Origin: a virus | Direction: 5' to 3' (one strand) | DNA: 39,654 nucleotides | IMG/VR virus record: IMGVR_UViG_3300046506_000191 | Part shown: in pieces, positions 1 through 39,654 of the stretch | How positions within the stretch are numbered: position 1 is the stretch's first letter | How the letters are laid out: each line of letters begins with the position of its first letter | Notes under the pieces: generated by a model | What the model was told of the DNA's origin: nothing | What the model saw: the letters and a program-made list of their open reading frames with translations, nothing else | Database searches by the model: none | Program-made: the position numbers and the translations under genes

Positions 1-127
1 TACAAGGAGTTGGACTGGCCGCGCTCCGCCGCCGAGGGTGACCCGGCCGCCAGCATCATCGGCACCGGCTTCCACACCTGGATGGAAGAAGCCTTCACCC
101 GCCGCCAGACGGTGCTGCCCGACGGCC
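1..127. repeat. Terminal overlap copy 1 (identical to 39528-39654)
   Basis: Exact 127-nt identity read directly from the sequence. It lies inside the nuclease CDS. Confidence 0.95.
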
Positions 128-1776: not shown

Positions 1777-4233
1777 TTGAGCACCGCACCGGTCCGCGAC
1801 ACGCCACTCGACGGCGCCCTGTGGCTCACCAGCCGCGGCTTCGCCGTCTTCCCCGTGGACCACCCCGGGCTGCAGCGGTGCGCCGGCATCGGCCAGGGCC
1901 ACGACCCCGCCACCTGTACCCAGCGCGGTAAGCACCCCGCCGTGGCGTTCACCCGCAGCCACGCCCGCACCGAGCAGCAGGCAGTCGCCCTGTTCGGCGG
2001 GCAGCTCCGCAACGTGGGCGTCGCCGTCGGCGCCTGCCGCGGCCCGGGCGGCGAGCAGCTGCTCGTCGTCGACTCCGATCGGCCCGGCGCCATCGAAGAC
2101 ACCGCCGCCCGCCTCGGCCACGCGCACACCCCGACCATGCGCGTCCACACCGCCAAGGGCCACCACGACTACTACTGGGCACCGGCGGACGCCCCCCTCG
2201 GCAACGGCCTCGGCATCCTCCGCGGACAGTTCGACGGCGACGTCCGCGCCGGAAATGCCTACGTCATCGGCCCCGGCTCCGTCCACGCCACCGGCGTCAT
2301 CTACGAGCTGGACGACCCCGAGCAGGCGCCCGTCCCGGCGCCCGCCTGGCTGCTCACCGCGCTGCAGACCAAGCCCGCAACCGCACCCGTCGCGCCGCCC
2401 AGCAACGTGATCGCGCTGCCCGCCGACCGGTATGACGCCTACACCCGCAAAGCCGTACAGGCCGAATGCGACGCCATCGCGCACGCAACGGACGGTGACC
2501 AGAACAACCAGATCAACACCAGCGCGTTCAGCATCGGCACCCTCGTCGGCGCTGGCGCGCTCACCGAAGGCGAAGCCCGGCAGACGCTGCTCGCCGCCGC
2601 CCGTGCAGGCAACCACCCTGACGGGCGGGCCCTGCCCACCATCAACTCCGGGCTCACCGCAGGCATGGCCCACCCCCGCACCCCGTGGCCCCCGGTCTCC
2701 CGCGACCGCTTCACCCTGCTCCTCCCCCAGCAGCCCACCGCCCCGGCCGCGCCTGCGGCGAGCACTCCCGCGTGGACCGCGCCCGTCGAGACGCCGATCG
2801 TCCTGCCCTCCCCGATGCCCGCCCGCGAATGGGACGACCTCGGCAACGCCGAACGCATCATCGACCGCTACGGCAGCGAGATCCGGTGGCTCGCCGACAT
2901 CGAACGCTGGGCGTACTACGACAAGGGCCGCTGGACCCTGAAGGCAGCCAACACCGGCGTGTGGACCCGCGCCGTCGACACCATCAACCAGCTCGAGGAC
3001 GAGGCCCCCAACTACAGCGACGAGACGCCACAGCCCGACCCCGGCAGCAAAGCGCAGGCGCCGGCCGCCAGCGAGCAGGAGAAGTTCCGCGCCTGGGGCC
3101 GCAAGCAGCGCATGCGGCCCAAGCTCGCCGCCGCCCGCGACGTCCTCCAGGCCTACCCCGTCGTCCACTCCGCCATGGACGCCTTCGATCAGCCGGAGAC
3201 GCTCCTCAACGTCACCAACGGCATCGTCGACCTCGCCACCGGTGACCTCCGCGCCCACGACCGCGGCCTCTACCTCATGCAGCAGTCACCCATCTGCTAC
3301 GACCCGACCGCCACCTGCCCCACGTGGGACAAGTTCCTCGCAGGCGTCATGCCCGACCCTGAGCGCCGCGCCTACCTCGCCCGCGTCGTCGGCTACAGCC
3401 TCACCGCCTGCACCGGCGAGCAGGTCATGTTCATCCACCACGGCGAAGGACAGAACGGCAAAGGCGTGTTCATGCGCGTCGTCATGGGCCTGCTCGGCGA
3501 TTACGCCCAGGCCGTGCCCGCCTCCACCCTCATGGCCAAGCACGGCGACGGCGGCATCCCCAACGACGTTGCCCGCATGGTCGGCAAGCGCCTCCTGTCT
3601 ACCTCCGAGACTGGACGCACCGCCGAAGGCCGAGGCAAGCCGCTCGACGAGGAACTCGTCAAGCGGCTCACCGGTGAAGACCCGGTGTCCGCCCGGTTCC
3701 TGAACGCCGAGTTCTTCGAGTTCAAGCCCGTCGGAAAGATCCACCTCGCGACGAACCACCTGCCCGACGTGTCCGGCAGTCACAGCATGGCCCGCCGCCT
3801 CCAAGACATTGGCTGGGACGTCATCGTGCCCCCTGCCAAGCGGATCCAGGGCCTGGCCGAACAGATCCTCGCCCGCGAAGCGGCAGGCGTCCTCAACTGG
3901 GCCATCCGCGGCTGCCTCGACTGGCAGCAGCGCGGCCTCGCCGTGCCCGACTCCGTCACCGCGAAGACCCGCGAGCACATCGCCCAGTCCAATCCCCTCG
4001 CGACGTGGCTGGAAGAGGAGACCGACGAGGTCGCTGACGCCGTCACCGAGAACGGCCAGCTGTACGGCAGGTACAAGGCGTGGGCCGAACGCGCGGGCGT
4101 TCGGCACCCCATGTCGATGAAGGCGTTCACGATCCGCCTGCAGGAGCAGGGGTTCCAGCAGGACAAGGACTCCCGCACCCGCCGGGCTGTCACTCGCGGC
4201 CTCGCGCTCGCCCTCCTTGGCGGCGCCCAGTGA
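1777..4233 (+). CDS. Bifunctional primase-polymerase (Prim-Pol) fused to a D5/P4-type SF3 helicase NTPase
   Basis: The N-terminal part (GFAVFPV, LLVVDSD, HTAKGHHDYYW, VIGPGSVH) matches the AEP prim-pol pattern. The C-terminal part carries Walker A HHGEGQNGKGV and a P4-family primase C-terminal region. TTG 1777 lies 9 nt after GAGGAG; the start is uncertain. Confidence 0.85.
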   Translation: MSTAPVRDTPLDGALWLTSRGFAVFPVDHPGLQRCAGIGQGHDPATCTQRGKHPAVAFTRSHARTEQQAVALFGGQLRNVGVAVGACRGPGGEQLLVVDSDRPGAIEDTAARLGHAHTPTMRVHTAKGHHDYYWAPADAPLGNGLGILRGQFDGDVRAGNAYVIGPGSVHATGVIYELDDPEQAPVPAPAWLLTALQTKPATAPVAPPSNVIALPADRYDAYTRKAVQAECDAIAHATDGDQNNQINTSAFSIGTLVGAGALTEGEARQTLLAAARAGNHPDGRALPTINSGLTAGMAHPRTPWPPVSRDRFTLLLPQQPTAPAAPAASTPAWTAPVETPIVLPSPMPAREWDDLGNAERIIDRYGSEIRWLADIERWAYYDKGRWTLKAANTGVWTRAVDTINQLEDEAPNYSDETPQPDPGSKAQAPAASEQEKFRAWGRKQRMRPKLAAARDVLQAYPVVHSAMDAFDQPETLLNVTNGIVDLATGDLRAHDRGLYLMQQSPICYDPTATCPTWDKFLAGVMPDPERRAYLARVVGYSLTACTGEQVMFIHHGEGQNGKGVFMRVVMGLLGDYAQAVPASTLMAKHGDGGIPNDVARMVGKRLLSTSETGRTAEGRGKPLDEELVKRLTGEDPVSARFLNAEFFEFKPVGKIHLATNHLPDVSGSHSMARRLQDIGWDVIVPPAKRIQGLAEQILAREAAGVLNWAIRGCLDWQQRGLAVPDSVTAKTREHIAQSNPLATWLEEETDEVADAVTENGQLYGRYKAWAERAGVRHPMSMKAFTIRLQEQGFQQDKDSRTRRAVTRGLALALLGGAQ

Positions 4234-4493
4234 GCGGCTGTGCGAAGGGGTGCGAAGGGGTTGCGAAGGGGTTTGCGAAGGGGTGTGCGAAGGCTTTGAC
4301 CTGCAAGTCGAAGGGATCGAAGGGGTTTTCCAACACCTACGCGCATAAGGAGATGGAAAACCAGAACGGTCCTTATGCAACAGCAGGACCGCGAAACCCC
4401 TTCGACCCCTTCGCACCGCAGGTCAACCCCTACGCACACCCCTTCGCAAACCCCTTCGCAACCCCTTCGCACCCCTTCGACGGCGCCCGATGA
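4230..4493 (+). CDS. Questionable 87-codon ORF reading through both palindrome arms (AKG-repeat N-half, NPF/PFA-repeat C-half)
   Basis: GTG 4230 overlaps the primase stop (GTGA) and the TGA stop overlaps the next start (ATGA). GC3 by hand count is only about 72 percent. The amino-acid repeats are direct by-products of the DNA iterons. Confidence 0.25.
   Translation: MSGCAKGCEGVAKGFAKGCAKALTCKSKGSKGFSNTYAHKEMENQNGPYATAGPRNPFDPFAPQVNPYAHPFANPFATPSHPFDGAR
4243..4479. repeat. Nested 237-bp palindrome built from GCGAAGGGG / CCCCTTCGC iterons; candidate replication origin
   Basis: 4243-4289 is the perfect reverse complement of 4433-4479 (47 nt). The arms continue imperfectly to 4328/4394. A central hairpin pairs 4343-4351 with 4370-4378. 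Confidence 0.6.
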
Positions 4494-4816
4494 GCAGCCT
4501 TCCGGCGCACCTCATCGCCGAGCGGGCTGCTCGCGCCGCCGAGACCGTCCGGCACCAGGCGTGCCCCCGCTGCGGAGCCGACACCCTCACCGCCCGCACC
4601 CCCGACCGCGTCGCCGCCGTCGACGTCCGCGCCGACCCGGCGCCTGTCGACCCGAACGCCATCCCCGCCGACCGCATGGCCTGGTGCCTCACCGGCGGCC
4701 AGCACACCACGCAGCACATCCGCTGGCGCGACCGCTGGCACGCCCCCCACTGCACCCACCCCGTCCTCATCGACCACGCATGCCGACCCCGACCCGTACA
4801 GGAGACCCTGCTGTGA
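4490..4816 (+). CDS. Hypothetical protein with CxxC and His/Cys-rich C-terminus (108 aa)
   Basis: High GC3 ORF. No obvious SD, so possibly coupled to upstream translation. Contains CPRC ... HAPHCTH ... HAC. Confidence 0.65.
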   Translation: MSSLPAHLIAERAARAAETVRHQACPRCGADTLTARTPDRVAAVDVRADPAPVDPNAIPADRMAWCLTGGQHTTQHIRWRDRWHAPHCTHPVLIDHACRPRPVQETLL

Positions 4817-5304
4817 GCCGATCCAAAGCCAAGGGCACCGCCGCCGAAACCGCGGTCGTCCAGTACCTCCAGGCCGCCGGGTTCGCCCAGACCGAGCGCC
4901 GCGCCCTCAACGGCAACCTGGACCGCGGCGACATCGCCGGCATCCCCGGCGTCGTCATCGAGGTGAAGAACTGCGCCCGGCAGGAACTCCCCGCCTGGGT
5001 CGCCGAAGCCGAGCTCGAGCGAGACAACGACAACGCGACGCTCGGCGTCGTCTGGCACAAGCGCCGCGGCAAGGGCAGCCCTCGCGACTGGTTCGTCACC
5101 ATGAGCGGCGCCCAGTTCGTTGCCCTGCTCCGCGAACAGCAGGGCCTCGACGCCCTGGCCCAGGACCCGGAGCGGAACCGCTGCCTGTCCGTATACGGCG
5201 GGATCTTCCGCTGCGCCAAGCCGACTGGCCACATGGGGGAACACCGGCTCGGCCGCACGGTGTGGGGCCGTCGCGCAGAGGACGACGGCGGTGAGGCAGC
5301 GTGA
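4813..5304 (+). CDS. PD-(D/E)XK endonuclease, Holliday-junction resolvase-like (archaeal Hjc-like)
   Basis: GTGA-coupled start after CAGGAG. KGTAAETAVVQYL ... RGDIAG ... VIEVK gives the E...D...ExK nuclease motif set. Confidence 0.7.
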   Translation: MSRSKAKGTAAETAVVQYLQAAGFAQTERRALNGNLDRGDIAGIPGVVIEVKNCARQELPAWVAEAELERDNDNATLGVVWHKRRGKGSPRDWFVTMSGAQFVALLREQQGLDALAQDPERNRCLSVYGGIFRCAKPTGHMGEHRLGRTVWGRRAEDDGGEAA

Positions 5305-5708
5305 CCCAGCAGCCGTACCGCGTCCTCGTCACCGGCAGCCGCGACTGGCAGGCCATCGGCGTCGTTCGCCGCGCCCTCGACGAAGTCCTCGCCGTCCTCC
5401 CGCACGATCAGCCCCTAGTCGTCGCTCACGGGGACTGCCCGACCGGCGCCGACATCATGGCCAAGGTGTGGGCGCTGACCACCTTCACCCCGGCCTGCAC
5501 GGACGACTTCGAGCGCGTCACCGAAGAACCGCATCCCGCTGCCTGGCACGTCCACGGCAACGCTGCTGGCCCGATCCGCAACAAGGCCATGGTCGACAAG
5601 GGCGCCGACATCTGCCTCGCGTTCATCCGCAACGGCAGCCGCGGGGCCAGCCACACCGCAGCCCTCGTCGAGCAGGCCGGGATCCCCACAAGGCGGTGGA
5701 CCGCGTGA
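5301..5708 (+). CDS. SLOG-superfamily / DUF2493-like protein
   Basis: YRVLVTGSRDW ... VVAHGDCPTGADI ... GPIRNKAMV ... SRGASHT pattern recalled from the DUF2493/YspA-type Rossmann-like family. GTGA-coupled start. Confidence 0.6.
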   Translation: MTQQPYRVLVTGSRDWQAIGVVRRALDEVLAVLPHDQPLVVAHGDCPTGADIMAKVWALTTFTPACTDDFERVTEEPHPAAWHVHGNAAGPIRNKAMVDKGADICLAFIRNGSRGASHTAALVEQAGIPTRRWTA

Positions 5709-7854: not shown

Positions 7855-7890
7855 TTGACTTGACAGGGCTCACATCCGGCGAGTTAATGT
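7855..7890 (+). promoter_or_regulatory. Sigma70-like promoter candidate for the rightward operon
   Basis: TTGACTTGACA (TTGACA at 7860-7865). GTTAAT/TAATGT lies 17-19 nt downstream. Sits in the divergent intergenic region. Confidence 0.35.
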
Positions 7891-7935
7891 AAGTACACAA
7901 AGTCGCCGTGAACAGCAGCGACAGAGGAGTGAAGC

Positions 7936-8265
7936 ATGTCTGACATCACGTGGCACCGACCGGAATACCAAGGGAAGGACGACCAGCTCGTCAGCCTCGC
8001 CAGCGTCGCCACGCTCGCCGGAGTCACCCGGGCCGCCGTCTCGAACTGGCGCCGCCGGCACGACTTCCCCAAGCCCGTCATGACCGCCGGCCGCACCGTC
8101 TGGGTCGTGCGGGCGGAGGCCGAGGCGTGGCTCGCCACGCGTCCGGCCCGGACCGCCAAGGACACCGACGCCCAGCTCGCCGCGCTGGAGGCCCGCGAGG
8201 CCCGCCAGACCGCCGCGTTGGCCATCACCCGCAAGAAGCTCCGCCAGCTCCACCAGCACCCCTGA
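7936..8265 (+). CDS. Helix-turn-helix DNA-binding protein (excisionase/MerR-like HTH_17 type)
   Basis: ATG after GAGGAG. LVSLASVATLAGVTRAAVSNWRRRHDFPKPV is a typical excisionase-family HTH. Confidence 0.7.
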   Translation: MSDITWHRPEYQGKDDQLVSLASVATLAGVTRAAVSNWRRRHDFPKPVMTAGRTVWVVRAEAEAWLATRPARTAKDTDAQLAALEAREARQTAALAITRKKLRQLHQHP

Positions 8266-15010: not shown

Positions 15011-15208
15011 TCATGATCAGCGCGTCAGGCCTCACCCATTTTTGGTGGCCTTCCCGGGCGACCCAAACGCCCTTCTCGCCCGTTTTTTTGCGCGGCGATT
15101 TTGAAAGATCAATCCGCGCGAACTCGGTTCGACCGTTTTAGCGGCCGTCACTCCGCGTGACCGCGCTATTTCCGCGAACCGGGTTCGAGTGAATTAGTGG
15201 GGGCGGTC
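15008..15208. other. AT-enriched intergenic region; candidate cos/packaging recognition site
   Basis: Lowest-GC stretch in the window, directly upstream of the small terminase gene. Contains T runs, the palindrome TGATCATGATCA (15008-15019), and a duplicated CGCGAACNNGGTTCGA at 15117-15132 and 15173-15188. Confidence 0.35.
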
Positions 15209-35165: not shown

Positions 35166-35321
35166 GCGTCTACGGTCACGGCACCATGATCATCCTGTCA
35201 CGGCAGAATGTTGCCGAATCCCGTTGGCCATTGAAATCATATGTGCAGACCGTATACGGTAGATCACGTTCCGCATCGGGGCCGCGCCCGCGGCACGTAG
35301 ACATCCCGGCGCAGAAACGAC

Positions 35322-35470: not shown

Positions 35471-37042
35471 TTACTGGACGAGTGCGGGTTCGTCCTCCCA
35501 CACGGGGATCACGCGTGCCGCAGCCTGATAGCGGGATGGGCGGGGCAGCACCCACACGTACCGCATCAGCTGCCGCAGCAGCAGGTTCTTCGTCACGACG
35601 GTGAGGAGGTTCGGCTCCTCCCACTGGGCAAGCAGGTCAGCCGCCAGCGGCTGGAAGTCGGCCGCGGTCCGCACCGGCTTCTCCTCTTCGCACTGCGCCA
35701 GCTCGGCCAGCACCTGCTTGCGGTCGGCTTCCAACCGCCTCACAGCCTGGTCGTAGGCGTCGGCCGGATACCGGTCGGGATTGAGGGCGTAGTCCATGGT
35801 GAGCCTGCCCAGCGCATCGGAGAGACGCGCGGACTCGGTGGAGAGACGCGCCCGCTGCACCCCCGGGTCGGGGCCGGCCGACCGCGGCGCGGAAATGGTG
35901 GCGGGGGCCGCGTCCACACCGGCCGCCACCTCCCGAATGAAGGGCAGCACAACCTCGGCTAGCAGCCAGCCGCCGGGGGCCGCGGTGCCTGGGCATGGCA
36001 CGCCGCCCGCCCGGCGCGAGCACCGCCAGTCCGCATCCCGGCCGCCACCGCGCCGTTTCGCACTCATCGAGTGATTGCAGTAACAGCAGCGCACCAGGCC
36101 GGTGAGCTCATAGGTGGCATGGCGCGCTCGAGGTGGCTGGCTGCGGACCAGGGAACGCCGCTCCCGGTACGCCTCCCACAGCTGTGTGGGATCGGCGTCG
36201 ATGCCGTACCCGATGATCGGCAGATGCGCACCGTCGGTATACCGCCAGTGCCCGCAGCTCTTAAAGCCGCGACCTTCGGCCTTGGGGCAATCGCAGTCGT
36301 CGCGGACGCGCAGCATCCCGGCCGGGAACCCGGAGTCCATGTAGCGCAGGAGGCTGTCGTAGCCCCACGGGCCGCCGCGCGTGGTCTGGTGGCCGACGGC
36401 GTTGAGCTGCTGGGCGAGGGCGACCATGCCGGTGCCGCCGAGGTACTGGGCGTAGAGGGATGCGACGAGGGGCGCCAGCTCGGGGTGCGGCTCGTACAAC
36501 TCCTGCTGGGTGCTGTATCCCGTAGGCGAGGCCGGGTCGGGGATGCGGCGTGGGTGCCAGATGTAGCCGAAACGGGGGCGGCCGGCGGATGGCACGCCCT
36601 GAGCGATGCGGTGCTTGTGGGTTTCCTGCCACTGCTCGCCGATGCGCCGCGACTCGAACTCCGCGATGCCGAACTGCACATGGCGACTCAGGCGGCCGAC
36701 GGCGGTGGTTGCGTCGATCCGCTCCGTCGCCGACTCCAGCGTGCCGCCCGCTTGTTCGAGGCGACGCAGGTTGATCTGGATGCCGTAGTCGTCGCGGCCG
36801 AACCGGCTGTACTTCCAGACGGCGATCCCTCTGGCCTCGCGGCGCTCGACGCGCTGGATCGCACCCATGATCTTCCGCTTGAAATGCCGTCCGGACACAT
36901 CCAGGTCCTCCACCCAGTCGATGACTTGACGGCCTGTCTGCTGCGCCCATGTGGTGATCGCAGCACGCTGGATCTCCGGGCTGATCTTCTCCTCGCGCCA
37001 GGTACTGACGCGGACGTATCCGATGAACGGCTCTGTGCTCAT
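35471..37042 (-). CDS. int: Large serine recombinase (phage integrase)
   Basis: The N-terminus IGYVRVSTWREE carries the catalytic Ser motif. Also present: the resolvase domain ...VWKYSRFGRD, a recombinase domain, and zinc-ribbon Cys pairs (CDCP...C, CCYC...C). Confidence 0.9.
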   Translation of the reverse strand: MSTEPFIGYVRVSTWREEKISPEIQRAAITTWAQQTGRQVIDWVEDLDVSGRHFKRKIMGAIQRVERREARGIAVWKYSRFGRDDYGIQINLRRLEQAGGTLESATERIDATTAVGRLSRHVQFGIAEFESRRIGEQWQETHKHRIAQGVPSAGRPRFGYIWHPRRIPDPASPTGYSTQQELYEPHPELAPLVASLYAQYLGGTGMVALAQQLNAVGHQTTRGGPWGYDSLLRYMDSGFPAGMLRVRDDCDCPKAEGRGFKSCGHWRYTDGAHLPIIGYGIDADPTQLWEAYRERRSLVRSQPPRARHATYELTGLVRCCYCNHSMSAKRRGGGRDADWRCSRRAGGVPCPGTAAPGGWLLAEVVLPFIREVAAGVDAAPATISAPRSAGPDPGVQRARLSTESARLSDALGRLTMDYALNPDRYPADAYDQAVRRLEADRKQVLAELAQCEEEKPVRTAADFQPLAADLLAQWEEPNLLTVVTKNLLLRQLMRYVWVLPRPSRYQAAARVIPVWEDEPALVQ

Positions 37043-37859: not shown

Positions 37860-38055
37860 GTCGGTAGAAGTAGCTATCGCGTCATGGAGCCCCCCGTGGG
37901 CCAGTTGGCATATCCCGGGAAAATGGTCTCCGCACACTATCCCCGGCCTGTTCGACGCCGCAAGCCATACCGCACACGGCATTTCGCGCAAAAATTCGAA
38001 CACTGAGGCGCCTCACCAAACGCTGCGTAATCGCACGGCCTTCACCCTCTCTTTT

Positions 38056-38114
38056 ATCTACCTCACCCGGTAGATAGTGGTAGCGTCTACCTACTGCGGC
38101 AGGTAGCTACCTGC
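38056..38114. promoter_or_regulatory. Array of GGTAG/CTACC palindromic operators upstream of the cro-like gene
   Basis: ATCTACC-N6-GGTAGAT (38056-38075), GGTAG-CGT-CTACC (38079-38091), GCAGGTAGCTACCTGC (38099-38114). Confidence 0.5.
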
Positions 38115-39374: not shown

Positions 39375-39654
39375 ATGGCCCGCACCAGTGGTTCCGACGA
39401 GACCGGCGAGGCCCTCGCCGAGCGCATCGCCGCGCTCATCGTGGACACCGCCCTCAACGCCCCCCGCTCCCTTCAGAAGCGGCTCGGCCCGTCCGAGGTC
39501 GGCGATCCCTGCGAGCGGCGCCTCTCGTACAAGGAGTTGGACTGGCCGCGCTCCGCCGCCGAGGGTGACCCGGCCGCCAGCATCATCGGCACCGGCTTCC
39601 ACACCTGGATGGAAGAAGCCTTCACCCGCCGCCAGACGGTGCTGCCCGACGGCC
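39375..39654 (+). CDS. Cas4/RecB-like PD-(D/E)XK nuclease, 5' part (runs off the window end; continues as 1..669)
   Basis: ATG 39375. MARTSGSDETGEALAERIAALIVDTALNAPRSLQKRLGPSEVGDPCERRLSYKELDWPR..., in frame with the ORF at 10..669 via the overlap. Confidence 0.8.
   Translation, partial: MARTSGSDETGEALAERIAALIVDTALNAPRSLQKRLGPSEVGDPCERRLSYKELDWPRSAAEGDPAASIIGTGFHTWMEEAFTRRQTVLPDG
39528..39654. repeat. Terminal overlap copy 2 (identical to 1-127)
   Basis: Exact 127-nt identity with the window start. Confidence 0.95.

Follow-up and report, generated by a model that had tools for sequence, protein, structure and literature searches.

The stretch of DNA analysed here, called the window throughout, is the viral record IMGVR_UViG_3300046506_000191 at its full length of 39,654 nucleotides (nt), and the subject of this work is a mirror-symmetrical element of short repeated words (iterons) at positions 4243-4479, immediately behind the gene for a primase-helicase and a candidate replication origin. 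The element occupies the gap between the stop codon of the helicase gene at 4233 and the next start codon at 4490, which is 256 base pairs (bp) between overlapping genes, and the first iteron begins 9 nt past the stop. The gap has a G+C content of 61%, and none of its frames has a coding-like G+C content at third codon positions (GC3). The parts of the locus are as follows.

1777-4233, plus strand: initiator gene of 818 amino acids (aa) with a TTG start, encoding Prim-Pol, D5_N, a superfamily 3 (SF3) helicase of the P4/D5 type and a predicted C-terminal winged helix
4230-4493, plus strand: open frame of 87 codons across the element, with GTGA at the helicase stop and ATGA at the next start
4243-4479: whole mirrored element, with arms at 4243-4328 and 4394-4479 and a 65-nt centre
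4242-4295, plus strand: left outer array of five iterons, spaced 10, 11, 12 and 12 nt from start to start
4297-4305, plus strand: invariant inner motif TGACCTGCA, which fills the 21-nt gap between iterons 5 and 6
4308-4325, plus strand: left inner iteron pair, TCGAAGGGA at 4308 and TCGAAGGGG at 4317, 9 nt apart
4329-4393, no strand: low-GC centre, the presumed unwinding region, with the inner hairpin and the GCGCATAAG motif
4397-4414, minus strand: right inner iteron pair, TCGAAGGGG at 4397 and GCGAAGGGG at 4406
4417-4425, minus strand: mirror copy of the inner motif, which reads GCAGGTCAA on the plus strand
4427-4480, minus strand: right outer array of five iterons, spaced 12, 12, 11 and 10 nt

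The 14 iterons form two mirror-image arrays of seven, and each is a 9-bp word made up of a CGAAGG core and about three specificity bases. The exact word GCGAAGGGG begins on the plus strand at 4242, 4252, 4263 and 4275, and the fifth forward iteron, at 4287, is GCGAAGGCT; the right outer array consists, on the minus strand, of a degenerate GCGTAGGGG at 4427, exact words at 4439, 4451 and 4462, and TCGAAGGGG at 4472. All eight exact 9-mers of the 39.6-kb window fall within 4242-4470, and a word search of both strands found no second iteron site elsewhere in this genome. A preliminary description of this DNA had listed five forward copies at 4242-4287, two degenerate forward copies at 4308 and 4317, and six reverse copies at 4397, 4406, 4439, 4451, 4462 and 4472. 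Every one of these positions stands, with two corrections: the last base of the copy at 4287 is T and not G, and a seventh reverse copy, that at 4427, had been missed. The spacing is graded rather than constant, at 10, 11, 12, 12, 21 and 9 nt with the mirror-image series on the other arm, and corresponds to roughly one helical turn.

A repeat search returned arms of 86 nt each that are 91% complementary and lie 65 nt apart. Their outer part, 4243-4289 with 4433-4479, pairs at 47 of 47 positions, and the inner 39 positions hold 8 mismatches (about 80% paired, inward to 4328/4394). This pairing had been given in the preliminary description and holds on recomputation, as does the 9-bp hairpin that it placed in the lower-GC centre near the same axis of symmetry (GCATAAGGA at 4343-4351 with TCCTTATGC at 4370-4378; axis at 4360.5, compared with 4361 for the large palindrome). 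Measured against shuffles that preserve dinucleotides, the element folds as single-stranded DNA at -121.6 kcal/mol (shuffles, -48.2 ± 4.0; z = -18.5) and as RNA at -196 kcal/mol (z = -17.2). The G+C content of the centre is 0.47-0.50 in 40- to 60-nt windows, compared with 0.70 genome-wide; the 60-nt windows around 4316-4326 (0.467) are among the three or four lowest of the genome, and the one from 4316, with a duplex free energy of -83.2 against a genome mean of -99.0 ± 4.6, is among the four least stable. Scans of the window for Rfam families, tRNAs and transfer-messenger RNAs gave no match, and scans of the region gave no promoter-like or terminator-like site and no T-tract terminator.

A search with the primase-helicase protein gave eleven viral contigs, to which prophage, plasmid and genome loci were added (relatives' loci are numbered L001 and so on). 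Arrays of the CGAAGG type follow the helicase gene in every Streptomyces relative examined (L001-L007, L012, L013, L015, L016-L019, L021 and L022), and the helicases of these relatives are 55-96% identical to that of this phage. The arrays lie immediately after the gene, in the same position and layout, in L001-L007, L012, L016-L019 and L022, and in the plasmid-type loci L013, L015 and L021 they start about 100-350 nt downstream. Counted over phages, prophages and plasmids, seventeen Streptomyces relatives have the element behind this gene. When eight phage elements are aligned, the invariant columns are exactly the CGAAGG cores of the 14 repeats and the TGACCTGCA/GCAGGTCAA pair. Among the six closest genomes, none of the 78 core positions varies, compared with 16 of 97 in the rest of the arms and 35 of 65 in the centre, which is the fastest-evolving part of the element.

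The geometry is conserved along with the word. The series 10, 11, 12, 12, 21, 9 on one arm and 9, 21, 12, 12, 11, 10 on the other is kept in this phage, L001-L006 and L018; L019 has the same spacing minus the outermost iteron of each arm, and L016, L003 and L022 are close variants. It is retained where the helicase is only 57-66% identical to that of this phage and also where the iteron word differs, and the graded spacing might determine the (rotational) path that the DNA takes around the helicase as it loads. Counted from the helicase stop, the inner motif stays at +65 and +185 in every close relative, and L013, L015 and L021 have it too. As a specific word, GACCTGC was rejected, with about 20 copies per strand in the genome; because the 7-mer is so common, only the fixed position of the motif is informative.

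The bases 3' of the core, in turn, fall into classes: GGT in this phage, L001-L005 and L016-L019; ACT or ACC in L006, L013 and L015 (ACC in the latter two); and a mixture of GAT and CTT in L007, L012 and L022. Both arms carry the same class within any one genome, and CGAAGGAC is present at 14 of the 14 sites of L006. Within the centre, the sequence of the inner hairpin is not conserved; some dyad symmetry may nevertheless be maintained there, because L006 carries a different 7-bp dyad (GATGTGC/GCACATC) at the equivalent place (about 5610-5640). At the centre's left edge, most lineages keep the motif GCGCATAAG (or GCGCATAC), and L003, L004 and L018 have variants of it. The more distant viral contig L011 (6200-6620), whose primase-helicase is only 30% identical, shows the same layout with another word: directly behind that gene, an AT-rich stretch lies between GTGACCC(A) and (T)GGGTCAC arrays, accompanied by CTGACCTG motifs.

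Words and base pairing can be told apart by how they change among relatives. In the alignment, 86.9% of cells pair, and 17 pairs have changed on both sides, compared with 4.8 ± 1.7 after shuffling (0 of 500 shuffles reach 17) and 3-6 in slid controls; these double changes, to which L006 contributes most, fall at iteron positions 7-9. Where the six close genomes vary, the pairing of a left arm is 0.672 with its own right arm and 0.675 with that of another genome, and L007 retains the words with an in-register complementarity of only 59%. The preliminary description had proposed scoring compensatory against synonymous changes in related phages, and this comparison finds that the words co-change on the two arms, that the spacers are uncompensated and that there is no codon-position bias. 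It indicates that selection acts on the binding words and their geometry and not on base pairing, since spacer changes are uncompensated, the cores are invariant and L007 keeps the words with the pairing much reduced. The hairpin potential would then be mainly a by-product of mirrored word arrays, and cruciform extrusion may still help melting.

The initiator is predicted by domain search and structure model to be an SF3-type helicase with a C-terminal winged helix. In Pfam it matches Prim-Pol (3e-19), D5_N (2.4e-21), DUF5906 and Pox_D5, its match in PHROG is 1156, DNA primase (2.8e-116), and the GC3 of its gene is 0.92. An AlphaFold model of its last 299 aa (predicted local distance difference test score [pLDDT], 92.6) matches the PrimPol of African swine fever virus (ASFV; 8iqi), PriRep of the Staphylococcus aureus pathogenicity island (SaPI) SaPI5 (7ola) and E5 of mpox virus (MPXV; the mpox helicase). 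The match to 7ola, which spans the helicase and C-terminal model, has an E value of 9.5e-12 and aligns about 290 of 299 columns, at a sequence identity between initiator and PriRep5 of only about 14-15%. Modelled alone, the last 100 or so residues take the form of a winged helix whose best matches are RFX DNA-binding domains (top matches 8zjr, E = 8.4e-4, and 1dp7, root mean square deviation 2.3 Å), with further matches to PadR, MarR, Fur and ORC/Cdc6, and the C-terminal domain is accordingly predicted to be a DNA-binding winged helix. A sequence search of the PDB with the C-terminal 177 aa gave only noise, and the fold is visible only from the structure model. The winged helix diverges far faster than the helicase core (34% compared with 77% identity between this phage and L012), as would be expected of a specificity determinant. 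As a side observation, the protein P0082 shares, despite its label, 94% identity with a portion of this protein of a high-GC Streptomyces phage, and that record is probably a contaminated or mislabelled assembly.

The helicase family is not confined to phages but is present in 353 Streptomyces plasmid records, and across phages, prophages and plasmids the helicase gene is the only one that always adjoins the iterons. The 31-kb circular plasmid NZ_CP107770.1 has no recognisable replication genes other than those for Prim-Pol and this helicase, and the helicase gene is followed by a 900-bp gap without an annotated gene. This gap holds 7 of the 7 forward and 5 of the 8 reverse CGAAGGAC sites of the plasmid, in mirrored arrays around an AT-rich core and with a CTGACCTGC motif. 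The non-coding iteron regions of three plasmid loci, about 0.9-1.1 kb long, are these.

L013, 4449-5526: plasmid non-coding iteron region
L015, 4464-5538: plasmid non-coding iteron region
L096, 12188-13086: plasmid non-coding iteron region

These regions contain 12-20 CGAAGGACC iterons, with direct clusters outside the mirrored core as well. In all three plasmids, Prim-Pol and helicase are separate genes, and a small gene and ParA lie on the opposite strand just beyond the iteron region. Some of the plasmid sites might serve copy control or partition.

We consider it likely that the element is the iteron replication origin of this phage, at which the self-loading primase-helicase would assemble immediately 3' of its own gene. 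The preliminary description had proposed a candidate iteron origin next to the initiator gene, and this reading is now well supported by comparative, structural and literature evidence. By analogy, it is most likely of the same kind as the SaPI origin, the P4 origin, that of pRN1 and that of the experimentally tested Streptomyces plasmid pWTY27; the features of the SaPI/P4 kind are seen here in words directly downstream of the initiator reading frame, seven forward and seven reverse, around a centre of low stability. The mechanism, each step of which is inferred by analogy, would begin with the C-terminal winged helices of the Prim-Pol/SF3-helicase protein binding the words (CGAAGGGGT) on each arm. 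Two helicase rings would assemble around the centre, facing opposite ways because the arms point in opposite directions; the centre would then melt, the Prim-Pol domain would prime, and bidirectional replication would follow.

Several observations weigh against this reading or limit what can be drawn from the evidence for it. The ParA operon of the plasmids is about 1 kb away, and some plasmid iterons could serve partition rather than initiation. The GC skew of the genome is shaped mainly by one-directional transcription and does not independently point to an origin at this place. L019 retains GGT as its word although its winged helix is only 48% identical to that of this phage, and the relation of winged-helix sequence to iteron class is suggestive without being a clean one-to-one mapping. 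The plasmid pWTY27 is likened to the element by its published layout, and its RepA is compared to this helicase by description only. A broad survey of 75 relatives from many phyla found a strong inverted repeat right after the gene in 34, compared with 2 in within-gene controls, and a top 7-mer recurring at least five times after the gene in 28, compared with 6 in controls; it is supportive only, because its controls are coding sequence, in which inverted repeats are rarer than in intergenic DNA anyway.

The words could instead be sites for another DNA transaction, namely a partition centromere, a copy-control or incompatibility site such as the crr of P4, or an operator array, bound by another protein or by the helicase for regulation. 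Centromeres and operator arrays likewise consist of short words about one helical turn apart, and the neighbouring ParA operon and the extra direct clusters beyond the mirrored core of the plasmids fit such a role. However, no ParA adjoins the element in the phage genomes, the words occur at a single locus with the helicase gene as their sole constant neighbour, and mirrored arrays with a low-stability centre are the origin layout of SaPIs and pWTY27, which makes this explanation unlikely. That selection acts on an RNA hairpin of the early transcript, serving as an RNase III site, a terminator or attenuator, or a translational barrier, seems quite improbable. The region does lie within a plus-strand operon, its transcript is predicted to fold with the stability given above, and long perfect duplexes are RNase III substrates, but it is the repeated word that is invariant and not the pairing: spacers are uncompensated, arms pair as well across genomes as within them, and L007 has lost much of its complementarity in register. 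The hairpin is disfavoured as a selected feature because the word, not pairing, is conserved; in addition, there is no T-tract terminator or Rfam match in the region, and the plasmid versions have a separate small terminator-like hairpin together with long direct arrays.

A real gene at 4230-4493, with DNA repeats secondary to a repetitive peptide, is very improbable. The preliminary description had noted this frame, which is indeed open with GTGA and ATGA overlaps at its ends and stays open in the group of this phage, L019, L006, L022 and L007, starting at or next to the helicase stop and ending in a TGA that overlaps the next start (in L012 the open frame runs directly into the next gene). 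It does not behave as an ordinary gene, however. Variable columns are spread evenly over its codon positions (20, 21 and 23 of 86 each) and not as in the helicase gene (27, 25 and 91 of 200), and its GC3 is 0.72 in this phage compared with 0.90-0.93 in the neighbours, and 0.62-0.76 across lineages compared with 0.89-0.96. The peptides of L006 and L007 are unrelated to it, because the register differs for the right arm in L006 and for the left arm in L007, and concerted changes on two arms with different peptides have no explanation in a constraint on the peptide. A stop codon is impossible in the arms in any frame, and the minus strand is open too in four of six Streptomyces lineages. The 87-aa product has no match in Pfam, no recorded gene encodes precisely this product, and the Streptomyces chromosome record L012 has no gene called in the corresponding gap; judged from these comparisons, it is not a conserved protein. 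The pattern that the preliminary description had named as the mark of an ordinary gene, homologs that keep the protein and lose arm complementarity, is the reverse of what is found, which is that the mirrored repeats are kept and the protein is lost. An ATG at 4353 with AAGGAG ahead of it, which would give a 46-aa protein, was also considered and rejected, the codon being AAG in L002-L004. Finally, the element could be a mobile palindromic insertion resembling a miniature inverted-repeat transposable element, with CGGCGCCC(A/G)(G/A)TGAGC as its target duplication. The near-identity of the flanks that had suggested this duplication is real in this phage (13 of 15 positions) and nearly so in L001 (12 of 15), but it decays to 8-10 of 15 in L002-L005 (8 of 15 in L002 and L003) and is mostly the shared CC-RTGA-C context of stop and start, and a target duplication is not upheld. 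The element is also single copy, sits at the same site in all relatives with helicases 55-96% identical, and has no empty site among the close relatives examined, all of which carry it. We regard an insertion as extremely improbable and the element as a resident part of the replication module, because it is single copy, fixed in location and co-varies with the helicase gene family.

The open frame may have another meaning that is compatible with an origin. We raise, as a tentative possibility that we would not favour, that the origin doubles as a translated, sequence-indifferent bridge, with selection on translatability and not on the peptide. The words would be read as codons of the AKG/CEGV type on one arm and of the NPF/DPF type on the other, and the ATGA and GTGA overlaps would join the stop-free frame to the helicase gene and to the next gene. 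Translation would then open the transcript's hairpin (about -196 kcal/mol) and avert polarity, and the downstream genes would stay translationally coupled. This bridge is weakened by the openness of the minus strand and by the stop-free arms. With non-core bases shuffled, the probability of an open frame is 0.13-0.20 per lineage, and the lineages are not independent; among 33 distant relatives, a through-frame is open in 23 on the plus strand and 19 on the minus strand where 17.9 are expected, which is no enrichment. If the bridge is nonetheless real, the DNA element is constrained both as a protein-binding array and as a translated spacer that is indifferent to sequence.

Beyond the element, the following genes and features place it in its genome.

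4490-4816, plus strand: 108-aa CxxC zinc-ribbon-like protein, function unassigned (phrog_16156), GC3 0.91
4813-5304: RusA-like resolvase, after the 4490-4816 gene
35471-37042, minus strand: serine integrase gene

Homologs of the 4490-4816 gene follow the element in L019, L006 and L022 and are absent from this position in L007 and the plasmids. An exact direct repeat of 127 bp joins the two ends of the window (1-127 = 39528-39654), and because its ends are identical the window is a complete genome, circular or terminally redundant, of 39,527 bp with a further 127 bp of terminal repeat. The genome has a G+C content of 70%, with nearly every gene on the plus strand. We take the source to be a temperate Streptomyces phage, because close homologs of its proteins are found in Streptomyces genomes. 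Megablast and blastn searches of 50,697 GenBank phage records gave no match of the region to a cultured relative. The other 60-nt stretches of lowest G+C content and stability are 35207-35266, 7882-7941, 38050-38109 and 15081-15140, of which that at 35207 lies in the gap just downstream of the serine integrase gene and might be the phage attachment site (attP) or a regulatory region. Upstream of the initiator gene, a perfect 56-nt direct repeat (1327-1382 and 1692-1747), each copy of which forms a GC-rich hairpin (-36.8 kcal/mol), lies with one copy after the stop of the gene at 684-1316 and the other after the stop of the gene at 1397-1684. The latter gene, of 95 codons, is thereby bracketed by the two hairpins, and L001-L006 have at most a partial single copy of the repeat. 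The 1397-1684 gene and one hairpin may be a recent insertion, or the hairpin a duplicated terminator.

Mapped replication origins of actinophages are few, and our literature searches found no description of such an origin for a Streptomyces phage. For a family of prophages and temperate phages in Streptomyces, the element offers a precise and testable candidate origin, and it links these phages to a replicon that hundreds of Streptomyces plasmid records contain. The element stands out by its regularity and by a word as simple as a core plus a triplet. The CGAAGG core with a switchable 3' triplet (GGT, ACC/ACT or GAT/CTT) resembles a simple code for matching initiator and origin, which could define incompatibility groups and be used for vectors, and the regular mirrored array of seven plus seven sites with graded spacing would be a clean natural substrate for the loading of an SF3 primase-helicase as opposed rings. 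The layout of such an origin is already known from SaPIs, P4, pRN1 and Streptomyces plasmids, and the find is solid rather than surprising.

Among the systems with which the element can be compared are the origins of simian virus 40 (SV40) and the papillomaviruses, where the SF3 helicases large T antigen and E1 form two oppositely facing rings on short inverted-repeat words beside an easily melted tract. They differ in belonging to viruses of eukaryotes, in an origin-binding domain other than a winged helix, and in far fewer sites than the element described here.

The Sulfolobus plasmid pRN1 has a stem-loop origin of about 100 nt just after its Prim-Pol/SF3/winged-helix gene (ORF904); replication depends on this stem-loop, which can be relocated within the plasmid (PMC4234260). 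The same arrangement is present in Bordetella phage BIP-1 according to the authors of that work (PMC4234260). The initiator of pRN1 has the same order of domains as ours, and both have a large stem-loop 3' of their own gene. In contrast to our element, the pRN1 origin is reported without iterons and its stem is kept as a structure, whereas here the words are kept and the spacers are uncompensated. A purely structural stem of the pRN1 type does not fit this phage, given the invariant iteron cores and the equal complementarity within and across genomes (0.672 and 0.675). In the P4 alpha protein, one polypeptide carries a primase, a helicase of the SF3 type and, at the C terminus, a winged helix by which repeated words of the origin are bound (summarised in PMC4234260). 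The initiator of this phage has Pox_D5 and P4-family matches; P4, unlike this phage, has a bacterial primase of the Toprim type, and there is no second site in this genome. The ori and crr of P4 are not known to be arranged in a single mirrored array next to the 3' end of the alpha gene.

Closer in host are the theta-replicating Streptomyces plasmids pWTY27, pFP1 and pFP11, which share with this phage the host genus and the combination of rep genes with a downstream iteron region. Replication of pWTY27 is bidirectional and requires repA, repB (Prim-Pol) and a 300-bp non-coding iteron region downstream (PMC3583192). Its RepA footprints an inverted repeat of about 105 bp with one word on both strands (GTGGGAAC/TTCCCAC), and AT-rich tracts are present (PMC3583192). 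The plasmid relatives found here have the same gene order as the pWTY27 type, with CGAAGGAC iterons. The iteron word of the pWTY27 type differs from that of this phage, Prim-Pol and the second Rep are encoded by separate genes there and fused in the phage, and the phage form is packed into 256 bp between genes that overlap.

The origins of SaPIs consist of 6-12 iterons immediately after rep, half of them on each side of an AT-rich centre and in opposite orientation; the C-terminal winged helix of Rep reads the iterons, and the proposed loading is of two hexamers, one per side (PMC9371898). Our element resembles them in its oppositely oriented iterons beside the initiator gene and in an initiator model that superposes on PriRep of SaPI5 (7ola). 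It differs in having 14 iterons of about 9 bp where SaPIs have 6-12 penta- or hexanucleotides, in a primase that is of the Prim-Pol (archaeo-eukaryotic) type and fused to the helicase, and in the meaning of "AT-rich", which is a G+C content of about 47-50% here with a host at 70%. Its mirror symmetry is also far more regular than that of the SaPI origins and reaches into the spacers, with 47 bp of perfect pairing in this phage.

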